From: Carcharhinus amblyrhynchos
Taxonomy: Eukaryota
Assembly (NCBI GenBank): GCA_965287045.1
Contig: OZ336870.1
Span: 121,830,001 to 121,894,000 of the forward strand
DNA: 64,000 nucleotides
Direction: 5' to 3'
Below, piece after piece: positions 35,974 to 47,629 of this stretch; within the stretch, counting starts at the first letter, position 1, and each line of letters opens with the position of its first letter. The notes under the pieces are model-generated. The model searched no databases, was not told the DNA's origin, and was given only the letters and a program-made list of their open reading frames with translations. Position numbers and translations under genes: made by a program.

Positions 35974-36010
35974 ATGGATGCCAACTGCCGTAAGCATTGC
36001 GTCGAATTAT
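35974..36010 (+). CDS. pitx2: Pitx2 exon 2 (a/b N-terminus), coding part; exon starts 35951
   Basis: MDANCRKHCVEL+T versus human METNCRKLVSACVQL+G. Acceptor CTCTCTCTAG at 35950, donor GTGAGT at 36011, phase 1. Confidence 0.88.
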
Positions 36011-37175
36011 GTGAGTAAAAGCTTCGTTTAACGCCCCCCCCCCCCGCCTCTTTAAAACATCTTGCAATGTAGGGGCAGTTAATACTTTTGTCGAAACTTG
36101 GCCTGTGTATAAATGACACGTAGGGAAGCTGATTGATTCCCCTGGCGCATTTTTCTCAATGCACCGTCTACTACCGACAGCCACAGAGGGTATTTTCACT
36201 CTGAGCTGTGACCGGCTAAAATTATATTCTGAAGCAAGTTTCAGTGAAGCTCAGATCCTCAAAGCAACAAGAAATAAGAATGAGCATCCCTACAGTGCTT
36301 AAGGAGAGGAAAACAGGTTAATGCAAATGTAGAATTAGAGATTTTAATATGTGACAAATGTACACTTTTGGAACAAATGCCAATAAGATGCTTTGAAATA
36401 TGTAACCACTATAGTTGTGAAATTTTACCGACAGCCAGGTACTGGGCAGTTTCTGTGGGTGAGGCCTGTTGGTGATGTCATGGCTGACATTAATTAAGCA
36501 GCGAAGGAGAGAGTTGGAGCTCAGAGTGCCATAAGGAACGTTTAATTAACTCCAGTATTGGGAAGCGAATACACAGACACGTCTGTGCTTTCTTTTGGTT
36601 TTGTAACCTTGAAAAATCGGTGCTTATGCGACAAACTGGGAAAGTGCAATTCCTTCAGCACCCCAGAAAAGAGGGACCGGAAAGCAGGCAGATACGCTCA
36701 TTCCACGTGAAGAAAAGAAATATGCTCCTTTTGAATCAAACGTATTGTCATCTTCTTAACATGAACCCCATCAGAATAATTCGACAAAAATACTTGCCTC
36801 AAAAGACGAAAAACCCACGCAGAAAACATGTCAAAAGTAATGGTTATAGTTTAAACGCACACGTCTCTAAATCTGCCGGTATATTTTCTTTTTTTCTCAT
36901 TAGTGCCACCTATCCAAAAGGTTGGCTCGAATATGATTAATATAATAACCTTGCTGCTGGTATTAAACATGCGTTTATGTGAGGGCTGCTTGACAGTCCT
37001 CTAGACAACTTGAGTTAGATTTTAAAACATAGAGCATGAATATCTGAGAAGGGGCGTGGGCGAGAACCAACGGAACAATCTAAACTAGGGAAAGTAGAAA
37101 ACCAAAGGGGCTAACAGAAATTTTTGTTGCATTTTATTTACGTGTCTCACTTCGTTTCTATGTTTCCCCTCTCAG

Positions 37176-37310
37176 CCTCGCAGCCCTCTGCTGTGGAGTA
37201 TTTATTTACGAAAGACACAGAAATTCGAAAATCTGAATTAAGTTCTGCAACGGAAGCTGGAAACAGTAGAAAAGATAATAAATTCCTGAGGCATCACCTC
37301 GACTCGCATG
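37176..37310 (+). CDS. pitx2: Pitx2 exon 3 (Pitx2b-specific cassette exon)
   Basis: SQPSAVEYLFTKDTEIRKSEL versus human PITX2B VQPAAVECLFSKDSEIKKVEF. Acceptor TTTCCCCTCTCAG, donor ATG|GTAGGC, 135 nt, phase 1-1. Confidence 0.9.
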
Positions 37311-39874
37311 GTAGGCAAAACAAAATAGTCTCCTATATTAAAATTTCCGAACATAAAGTCTTGAAATATTTACGTGATCGGATGGACGGAATTATGGTGT
37401 GCGTAACATCATTCACTACACTAAACCTTACAACAGAATTCCACTACACCCTCTAACCAAACTGAAAGAAATCTCTCAAGATACACCGGTTAGCCTAAAA
37501 TTTGTGTTAGAGCGGCCTCTGCTGTACTAAAAGATCAAGTGTAGCAATCCTGAAGGGGTTCTGCTTGCTATGTGAACCCGGCATTTCTAAATTCCTTACA
37601 AGCAAGATAAACAACCGACCAACCTCAATTTTAAATCAAAGTAATTTGAGAAAAAAATTCATTTTCCTGGACTCATCTGAATAATTTACATTTGACTAAA
37701 TAGCAAGTCCATTCATAAAAGAACAGGTAATAAAATATTGAAGATTGTTTCTCTGTTTGATTCTATCGTTTGTTTTTTAAAAATACATTCCTGCGTATAT
37801 TACTTACTTTAAAAGGTGTAAATTATCTGCATACATGCAATTTCTGATATTTTCAGAAAGTGCGCATCCAAATGAGTACAAACCAATTGTGCTGTTTATC
37901 TTCACGAACCTCACATTTTGAGACAAAGAGCTCGGCTGAAGAAAATTAATTGACTTTGCAAAAGCCCTTTTTCTCACATAAAATCGCTTTCTTCATACGC
38001 CGTTAGTAATCCTTGATGTGCTGCAGTTTTCTTGTTGTGCACTGCTAGATGCGTTAATTGGACATTTTCCTACAAAAAACAGGTTTAAACAGGTTTTCCT
38101 TTCCGTTTGAAATATAAAGATATGCAAGTAAGTTAGTTGTTCTGCTCTAATGTGTGTTTTTAATTGAACCTAGTATTAATCCTGCTATAAATCCTTTGCG
38201 TTATGTAATACTTTTTTATTGGCAATTGCAGAAGTATAATCTACAGTCATCCATTAATTTGGCCTAAACCTACCAAATTGTATTCAATTTTCTGTTTGCA
38301 ACCGAACCATTCATTGGAGCTGCGTATCTATAGACGTGTTTCGAATACACTTGATTCAGTAATTTCCAAAAATGTATAAAATTACCTAGACAGACAATCT
38401 TAAAGTAAAACGAAACGAAAATATAACAATTTGCTCTCATATTGTGTGGCATCCATTTCAACTCCAAATTTCGGGTCCGCATATTTTAATCTTGTTTGTG
38501 CTTCCAATTTGATGATATGCAAACGTTAATTTTGAGGGTTTATTTATTCCATAGTCTATTCAATTGTGTGCATGTGTGCACAAATACGTTGTGTGTTGAA
38601 ATGTTTTTAGATAGCACAGTGTTCCAGTCTGCTCCGTCGTTACTTTCGCATTTAAGCAGTTTGTGTACAGTTTAAATCATTGCACAAACGGATTTTTATG
38701 ATCAAATTTAACCATTACCATTTAGCCAGTCCGACACAATTTAAATGATCAGATTACATTGAGGAGGCTAAGTGATGCTTGGAAACCCATATGTTATAAG
38801 CTATAGCGTTTCTTTATCCGCAGGCCCCCTGAAAAATAATTCTAAATGTAAAATAAAATTTGACATGGTTTATCTCTTTAATACCAAACAGCTGCATGAA
38901 TTGCGAACAGTTTGAAAATACTTCGTTTTTCTTGAATATGCAAACATGCTACAGTTTCTCTTGTCACTTTTTAAAATGGGTATTCACTCACTCCAGTAAT
39001 CCACTAATCTGGAGTAACAATTCGTGTACTATGGTGTATAAAATGTTTTTAAATCTTGTTCATTGTGAGAGTCATTTAACGAGAAATTTAGAAGCATGTT
39101 TCAGGTGAAGAGTGAGGCGGTGTTTGTACTAAAGAAATGTGTTACTGCACTGCCTAATCCTCTATGTGTGTAAATGGAGAGGGGTGCCATGGAGACGGGA
39201 AAGAACTAGAAATTTGTCAAATATCAATGAAAGAAAGTTTATTTCCTTTTAAGATCTGTTTACTGTCTGTCTGTTTTGTACAGTCTGTGTAATATATGCA
39301 GCAGTTGTTAGATTGACTCGAGGGAAAACTAAATGTATAATGAAAGCTTATTCGTGAGTAGGAATATACTAATGGAACAATTTGATATCTTCTTAATCCT
39401 TTGTAAAAAGCTTTGTCGTCTTCCTAATATTGACTGAATGGGTAATTAATGGCTCTTCATCTTGGAGAATACTCAGTAATCCAACATAGGAAAAAGACAA
39501 CAAACCCAAGGTATAAGACAACAAAACAAGCACAAATCTACCCAAACAGCACCAATTCATCCACTTAACAGACTACAAGTTCTGGAAGTAATCTTCTAAT
39601 GTATATGTGCAAATACAATCAGAGCCAGCGACCGTGTCACAATACTACAAACATCCTAATTCGATACCTAAAAGCCTTATAATAAACGTGCAATTGATGG
39701 ATCAGAAGTGCATTTTAATTTAACTTTTTTTCGATTCCACGGCGCATTTATTTGAAAATAGTTTTGTGATCTTTTCTATGTGTCAGCACAACAGCTATGC
39801 ATATTTTGGATTTTTTTAAATCATATTTTGCTCATGAAATATGCAGTATTCAAATAGCTCAATCTCCAACCACA

Positions 39875-46140: not shown

Positions 46141-46481
46141 GATCCTTATCTGCAGTTACCTATCCCTGTCACTCGGACGCACACATACACAGTGTCAGCC
46201 CGGAATCATTCATTCATTGTCACCCCCTCAGTCTGCTTCTTCTCCTCCTCTGGCACACTTTCATCCCTGCACGGGCTTTCTAATGAAGAGAGCAGCACGA
46301 ATGCGCAATTTAAAGAAGATTTGTGCAACTATCTATTGAAGATTTGTGCACGACAGTTCCTGGATCACCACACCCCTAGATCATTGCATTCCCCTTTGGA
46401 CTTCTCTCTCAGTGTGAGGTGGGCTGCGAGAAATTTAATCCTCTTTGGAACATCGCACCGGCTGCTTGTATTTGTTTATAG

Positions 46482-46665
46482 ATGAACAGTGCAAAAGACC
46501 CGTTGACTTTGGACCACCCTAGAAACAGCAGCAGCGGCAATAAATTGGTGCGGGATCAGGCAGCATTAGCCATGGCTTCGGGTTTGCAACCGGTACGAAC
46601 GAGCGAGCCCAAGCACCGGCTCGAGGTTCACACTTTATCGGACACCTCCAGTCCTGACACGGGAG
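46482..46665 (+). CDS. pitx2: Pitx2c first coding exon (exon 4)
   Basis: MNSAKDPLTLDH...LAMASGLQ...KHRLEVHTLSDTSSP matches the PITX2C N-terminus. Donor GAG|GTAAGG at 46666, phase 1. Confidence 0.96.
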
Positions 46666-47423
46666 GTAAGGCCTTTTCCATCCATATAACGCCGCATCGA
46701 TTTCACTCCAATCGGACATAGTGCCACTTCCTTATTTTATGGCATAACTTTATTGCGTCTCAAGACAAAAATGCAGTGCGTTTTGACATCAGCGATCATT
46801 TTATTACTCACTTTGTACGATATGATATATTCAGTGTTTCACATGTCTGCAAATTGCACCGTTCCTGAGTTATATCTTTGAGCGCGTGCAATGAAATTCT
46901 ATGCGAATTATTGTTTAGTATAATAATAGAACGGGGTATTAAATATTCATTTATTTATTACAGTCTAAAATGGGTCTGTTCGTACTTTAATCGTTATGGG
47001 CAAGGAAATATGTACATTTGCCAATGAAGTGAGTAGCTTGTTTGCATTTTATAGACTAAGAAAACGCGCTGAGTATACATTCAGGGGTGGAAATAATTTA
47101 TACATATCATTTCTGTTTCTGCATCAGAGTAGGTGCTTTATAACTCTGCAAATATACAAATTGAATATATGAAGCAATGCGCAAAAATAAGCTATTGTCA
47201 TTTAAAAGTGAACCAGGGCATTTAATTTAGTCATTTAATCGTGAGGTGCTACGATTTAAACCCGCAATATCGCTGTGCTTGTGCACTTAAAGGTACTTTT
47301 AGGATGCACAATGTCTAGTTCGTTGTTTCTGGTTGGACTTACCTTTCTCAGGTGTGTGAGCTGAATATTTATGTAATGCCCAAGTGAACCAATTGGGAAA
47401 TCACTGCTCATTTTTGTCCCCAG

Positions 47424-47629
47424 AAAAAGATAAAATTCAGCAAAGCAAAAACGATGACACGAATACAGACGACCCGTCAAAGAAAAAGAGACAAAGGCGC
47501 CAAAGAACCCATTTCACCAGTCAACAGCTACAAGAACTGGAGGCAACTTTCCAGAGAAATCGCTACCCAGACATGTCGACGAGGGAAGAAATTGCAGTTT
47601 GGACCAATTTAACTGAAGCTAGAGTTCGG
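47424..47629 (+). CDS. pitx2: Pitx2 exon 5 (homeodomain N-terminal part)
   Basis: EKDK...[50 protein letters not shown]. Acceptor TTTTTGTCCCCAG, donor CGG|GTAGGT, 206 nt. Confidence 0.99.

Follow-up and report, generated by a model that had tools for sequence, protein, structure and literature searches.

The homeobox gene Pitx2 is described as giving rise to three highly conserved vertebrate isoforms, Pitx2a, Pitx2b and Pitx2c (PMC8377849). The accounts of mouse and human in PMC2330153 and PMC5753117 derive them from six exons and two promoters, with exon 3 as a phase-1 cassette exon and with shared exons 5 and 6 encoding the homeodomain and the OAR motif. We analysed a stretch of 64,000 nucleotides from the shark Carcharhinus amblyrhynchos (assembly GCA_965287045.1, contig OZ336870.1, positions 121,830,001 to 121,894,000 of the forward strand), hereafter the window, in which Pitx2 lies as one copy at its genomic place and with the same overall layout. 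The subject of this report is the a-type join of exon 2 to exon 5, which in this shark creates a stop codon.

The assignment of the gene to Pitx2 was supported at several levels. The c form predicted from exon 4 is a 317-residue frame without any difference (0/317 residues) from the RefSeq c-type protein of Mustelus asterias, Pitx2 X1 (P0141), and it differs from four further elasmobranch entries at 3-9 residues. The 313-residue b form showed 4-11 differences from the four entries with which it was compared, XP_038648087.1, BAK57345.1, XP_072438958.1 and XP_078398868.1, the second of which we take to be a cloned cDNA. As expected for a Pitx2 orthologue, the product carries a paired-like homeodomain (PF00046) with Lys50 and the motif WFKNRR, as well as a C-terminal OAR motif (PF03826). 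The gene is closer to Pitx2 than to its paralogues, and shark Pitx1 matched a different contig at 99% and this gene at 76-80%. Four Pitx-like genes of this shark share the same pair of homeobox exons; they lie at G000:C13:29376531-29379263, C1 (this gene), C31:3942808-3945167 and C34:18050490-18052614, and their number is one above the usual Pitx1-3.

All exons lie on the forward strand. Exon 2 spans 35951..36010 (60 nt), and its coding sequence runs from the ATG at 35974 to a final T at phase 1 (35974-36010, 37 nt), ending as TTA T/GTGAGT with the slash marking the splice site. The donor (36010..36016) combines a non-G last exon base with a full intronic consensus, which would offset the non-G base. 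Exon 3, the b exon, occupies 37176..37310, runs from phase 1 to phase 1 over 135 nt and shows 86-93% identity to shark b-type Pitx2 proteins; as it starts with CC, the junction with exon 2 reads TCC (Ser). The coding part of exon 4 (46482..46665), specific to the c isoform, ends in G. Exon 5 (47424..47629), which starts as CAG/AA, encodes the N-terminal half of the homeodomain, and the coding part of exon 6 (49554..50117) supplies the C-terminal half, the OAR motif and the stop codon. The exon and junction coordinates that a first-pass annotation had assigned to this DNA were all borne out on the window sequence.

A stop codon at the junction of exons 2 and 5

Joining exon 2 to exon 5 brings the T at 36010 next to the AA at 47424, and the resulting frame translates to MDANCRKHCVEL*, a TAA following after 12 codons. 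When exons 2, 3, 5 and 6 are joined instead, the 3-5 join being predicted from sequence, the frame encodes 313 residues with a single terminal stop. Translation thus reproduced both the stop and the intact Pitx2b that the first-pass annotation had read from the letters. No full a protein can be obtained from the exon 2-5 join, and none of the 11 shark exon-2 proteins described below is a-type (among the matches listed). Canonical Pitx2a protein cannot be made in this shark. With AA following, T alone of the four bases yields a stop, so that the stop taken by itself would be a 1-in-4 chance event.

We next turned to sequencing runs. Querying by exon 3 brought up 15 runs, none of them recorded as RNA. 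Four of these (X1, X7, X10 and X15), representing four closely related organisms and four studies, were examined by alignment over 154 bases around exon 2; both large DNA runs are among the 11 of 15 runs outside this comparison. Each of the four runs gave exactly one contig (depths of 19, 76, 4.6 and 15), which covered 35949 or 35950 to 36010 and continued in loose letters identical to the start of exon 3. At the opposite end, the loose letters 5' of exon 2 matched three distinct upstream exons. In X7 and X10 they fit the 3' end of the 5' non-coding exon of the upstream promoter, P1 (33040..33250, start approximate; donor CTG/GTAAGT at 33250), and a scan of the window found no upstream ATG between 33000 and this donor. 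In X15 they fit the 3' end of an alternative P1 5' exon (33694..33723, donor 33723), and in X1 that of a second alternative one (34600..34630, donor 34630). Since the contigs are spliced to upstream exons, we took the four runs as RNA. At least three alternative 5' exons are joined to exon 2 in RNA. A fourth candidate, at about 35378-35480, is similar to the extended N-terminus of RefSeq X1 forms from bamboo and basking shark (71% to P0010) and may supply an extra upstream start codon.

No letter differed from the window in X1, X10 and X15, in which the T at 36010 was read directly. X7, from a more distant organism, showed three differing letters, one of them placed at 35980, where it turns codon 3 into Ser, the residue that the named sharks below have there. 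Exon 3 began with CC in all four runs, which implies that the junction Ser of sharks is TCC; the alternative codon AGY is ruled out by the same start. The first-pass annotation had singled out the T at 36010 for confirmation in reads, and an assembly error there would have removed the stop. That explanation, to which we assign next to no probability, was refuted by the independent spliced contigs: three runs match every letter through 36010, and Ser stands at the junction in four named shark species. At the other side of exon 3, the contigs of X1 and X7 end exactly at 37310 (135 loose letters), hinting at a fork, perhaps through retention of intron 3, and the X15 contig extends 29 letters beyond 37310, as would be expected at a point where the b and c forms come together.

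The distribution of the junction residue was examined by applying an exon 2 pattern to 317 proteins, which gave 112 matches and missed a few, uncounted bony entries with divergent exon 2. The protein counts in this report are counts among the matches listed, and the shark entries came mostly through exon 3 or its clusters, which biases them to b. Within this scope, 11 of 11 shark exon-2 proteins are b-type with Ser at the junction. These entries, from Scyliorhinus canicula, S. torazame, Chiloscyllium punctatum and Cetorhinus maximus, are mutually non-independent and include one fragment and one gene prediction. The non-shark exon-2 proteins carry E, D, G, V or A at the junction in 101 of 101 cases. 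As these residues are encoded by GNN codons, the last base of exon 2 in bony vertebrates is G, in agreement with what the first-pass annotation had stated. Judged by these protein sequences, the contrast between the lineages, Ser in all the shark entries versus GNN-encoded residues in all the bony-vertebrate ones, is not chance.

A query by the exon 2 region also returned b-type proteins in three of three cluster representatives. The earlier claim that this lineage has no Pitx2a protein holds insofar as the canonical form is impossible here. Judged by the proteins, the trait is wider than one lineage and takes in no fewer than three orders of sharks. Public shark b-type entries are labelled as numbered isoforms only, and none that we saw states that the a form is impossible.

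Exon 3 inclusion and the possible fate of skipped transcripts

Exon 2 was spliced to exon 3 without a fork in the contigs of all four runs. No second contig leaving at 36010 or 35989 was found in any of them, exon 5 lying outside the aligned stretch, and a common skip of exon 3 would be expected, from the way contigs are built, to split the contig at 36010. The skipped exon 2-5 join was absent from all four contig sets, which lose rare forms and stem from runs chosen by exon 3. Pitx2b is the dominant form in the four sampled runs, and exon 3 looks as obligatory as the first-pass annotation had suggested. The mouse pituitary differs in this respect, as the removal of exon 3 is reported to be the preferred splice event there (PMC2330153), whereas inclusion is the only form seen in sharks.

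The first-pass annotation had further proposed that skipping of exon 3 acts as an off switch for P1. Under this explanation, regulated skipping would shut down the output of the upstream promoter, via either nonsense-mediated decay or the short upstream open reading frame. The TAA stands 204 nt upstream of the last junction, beyond the 50 nt that the earlier annotation had named, and fits the 50-nt rule as given in PMC3273812. Moreover, short open reading frames are described as no reliable shield against decay (PMC10187673). Decay itself would conceal the skipped RNA from contigs, and the T is old and retained. The skipped RNA was, however, absent in all four runs, and the Ser in the b form suffices to explain the retention of the T. 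We presume that codon 13, where the stop lies, falls inside the start-proximal range that escapes decay. Start-proximal stops can largely escape decay according to PMC3273812, in which case abundant skipped RNA should show. Such a switch is unsupported, and we consider it improbable.

Alternatively, reinitiation on the skipped RNA at the ATG at 47573 might produce a 206-residue, PITX2D-like inhibitor without the first 27 homeodomain residues. Both ATGs named in the first-pass annotation occur at the positions and in the frames it gave. The ATG at 47573 is in frame, corresponds to homeodomain residue 28 and lies 147 nt past the TAA, within the range of 6-243 nt reported in PMC6614817, and a matching 206-residue form is present in human RefSeq (P0147). 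This route depends on the skipped RNA, which was not seen, and the out-of-frame ATG at 47454, which has A at -3 and opens a frame of 52 codons, comes first, 28 nt past the TAA. None of three shark 206-residue truncated forms was found in the protein collection by exact-match look-up, and the Met at 47573 is simply a conserved homeodomain residue. Like human PITX2D, the homeodomain-truncated shark product would begin inside exon 5. The human form is reported to arise from the c promoter via a cryptic acceptor (Cox et al. 2002, as cited in PMC2330153 and PMC5753117), whereas the shark product would require both a skip and reinitiation, neither of which was seen. We regard this product as highly improbable. 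It also seems unlikely that cartilaginous fishes use exon 3 skipping more broadly as a tissue-level switch, silencing the upstream promoter or diverting it to a truncated inhibitor while leaving Pitx2c untouched.

An a-like protein might still be made through other splice sites. We scanned all GT and GC donors up to 200 nt after the ATG and ten AG acceptors from -120 to +60 of exon 5. The GT at 36015, which the first-pass annotation had already dismissed, gave no open frame; its check was nevertheless incomplete, as an in-frame donor at 35990 and an in-frame acceptor at 47430 had been overlooked. The sole frame-restoring donor of the scan is GCC/GTAAGC inside exon 2 (35990..35995), an apparently unused site that would leave a five-codon exon 2 in an in-frame a-like protein. 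With the normal donor, four of the ten acceptors (47361, 47385, 47430 and 47469) keep the frame open. A hidden a-like protein could accordingly have about 261 residues via donor 35990, or about 266 residues with Tyr at the junction via acceptor 47430. Both sites give open frames, the donor has GTAAG at +1 to +5, and the four runs have no listed difference at these letters. On the other hand, the 35990 donor matches 5/9 letters of the consensus versus 7/9 for the used donor, and exon 2 ended at 35989 in none of the four runs. No such protein was found among the 11 shark exon-2 proteins, and the GT at 35990 may merely belong to an Arg codon before Lys. The existence of a hidden a-like protein appears doubtful to us.

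Several further features lie within or near these exons. The AG at exon 3 +39 (37213..37215, in-frame Tyr), which by the 39-nt offset in PMC2330153 is the acceptor position of mouse and human Pitx2b2, is kept in the shark; no use of it was seen in the contigs of the four runs. Immediately 5' of the c start codon, a pyrimidine-rich run at 46455-46482 ends in AG. Exon 2 or 3 joined to this AG was rejected as a candidate form, being out of frame with a stop within a few codons. In intron 2, a block at 36430-36560 contains two TTAATTAA sites and looks by eye like a conserved regulatory element, a putative assignment. Upstream of Pitx2, the broken open reading frames at 4475-5172 and 16023-21816 resemble, by eye, the ends of reverse-transcriptase genes of long interspersed nuclear elements. 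Repeat scans of 30000-52000 gave nothing relevant to the splice.

Probable history and meaning of the missing a form

Whether the a form was lost in sharks or gained elsewhere can be approached through the paralogue Pitx1. In bowfin and sea bass, Pitx1 has short forms (P0085 and P0098) with a 15-residue leader, followed directly by the E of the homeobox exon. The bowfin leader is identical to exon 2 of human and lizard PITX2 at 7 of 15 residues, and only 2 and 1 of 20000 shuffles, respectively, reach the score; the remaining eight leader pairings are weaker (29-1018 of 20000 shuffles). The comparison suggests that ray-finned Pitx1 has an 'a' form with a leader homologous to exon 2 of Pitx2. 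A homologous Pitx1 exon in the a-type layout would in turn suggest that this exon, with its direct join, is older than the split of Pitx1 and Pitx2, and hence that the a form is old.

The teleost exon-2 entries comprise 17 a-type, no b-type and two other forms out of 19, and zebrafish is described with a and c forms only in PMC3267762 and PMC8472202. The Pitx2 genes of bichir and sturgeon retain the b exon, and exon 3 was possibly lost in teleosts (proteins P0077, P0153 and P0262-P0279).

The opposite history would hold that exon 3 was constitutive in the ancestor of jawed vertebrates and kept so by sharks, Pitx2a re-arising in bony vertebrates through a change from T to G. Exon 3 is indeed common to sharks and bony vertebrates, and no outgroup was found to have it, as judged by eye in lamprey (0/8 entries). 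However, the homologous exon of ray-finned Pitx1 joins the homeobox exon directly with Glu, the short forms of lamprey likewise have Glu at that entry, and an upstream-promoter isoform is reported in amphioxus and tunicates (PMC8377849). This history would also require a change of G into T followed by a reversal to G. We judge it unlikely, and the sequences indicate that Pitx2a is likely ancestral and that sharks lost it.

The junction bases, the stop, the open b and c frames and the splice of exon 2 to exon 3 in four runs are established. Beyond these, we consider it probable that exon 3 of shark Pitx2 is included by default, the a-type join being a stop, that Pitx2b is the likely sole full-length protein of the upstream promoter, with Pitx2c made from the downstream one, and that the a form is older and was lost. 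We infer that exon 3 first became near-constitutive in the cartilaginous-fish line, which would have ended the need for the final base of exon 2 to pair with the AA of exon 5. That base could then have changed from G to T, replacing Gly by Ser in the b form. The T would lock this state, as every skip would yield a 12-residue peptide, and the stop would be a lock rather than a switch. The a layout would thus be the older one and lost in sharks, while teleosts apparently took the opposite course and kept only a.

Several points weigh against this interpretation. The runs were picked via exon 3, so that b was present by choice, and four of the 15 listed runs were examined. As exon 5 is outside the aligned stretch, a skip would be visible only if the contig broke at 36010 or a second one appeared. 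Contigs lose rare forms, a decayed skip product would be absent either way, and the filter may omit records. Two of the three differences of X7 are unplaced, so that its T at 36010 is likely rather than read. As the shark proteins were mostly found via exon 3 or its clusters, an a-like entry may have gone unnoticed among sharks, and none of the exon-2 proteins retrieved among the 317 came from a ray or chimaera. The Pitx1 comparison was chosen by eye, and the leader match is weaker for the second fish (48-1018 of 20000 shuffles) and for bowfin versus minnow (220 of 20000). Finally, a search of the 30 kb upstream of Pitx1 in this shark found no a-type exon, the matches being weak only, as they were within 20 kb upstream of two other paralogues; the best weak match in these scans lay on the wrong strand.

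Compared with mouse and human, exon 2 of the shark gene ends in T, is three codons shorter and forms a stop at the a join, and exon 3 has 135 nt in the shark versus 138 nt in mammals. Zebrafish, with its pitx2a and pitx2c forms (PMC3267762, PMC8472202), is similar to the shark in having a single upstream-promoter protein form, but teleosts and sharks are mirror images, the former showing a but not b, the latter b but not a. Across genes more widely, unproductive splicing coupled to decay, as in poison or frame-essential exons, is a known general class, and the shark gene shares with it a splice choice that places a premature stop far ahead of the last junction. Unlike in poison exons, the shark stop is formed by the junction itself at codon 13 without a frameshift, and regulation or decay is putative here. 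We found no description of shark Pitx2 isoforms in the literature searched, subscription papers and supplements being outside the search. Within a known isoform system, the stop at the a join of shark Pitx2 is a variant that is real and old and seems not to have been published.

The DNA binding and activation of the isoforms are reported to be much alike, with minor differences (PMC3267762), and because of this likeness the functional effect of the missing a form is probably small. The finding has a practical side, in that annotations and clones of the shark gene should avoid the name "Pitx2a". It also offers a clean single-base instance of an alternative exon that has been locked in. Sharks with b alone and teleosts with, apparently, a alone would provide a natural test of the interchangeability of the a and b forms in eyes, teeth, pituitary and head muscle.

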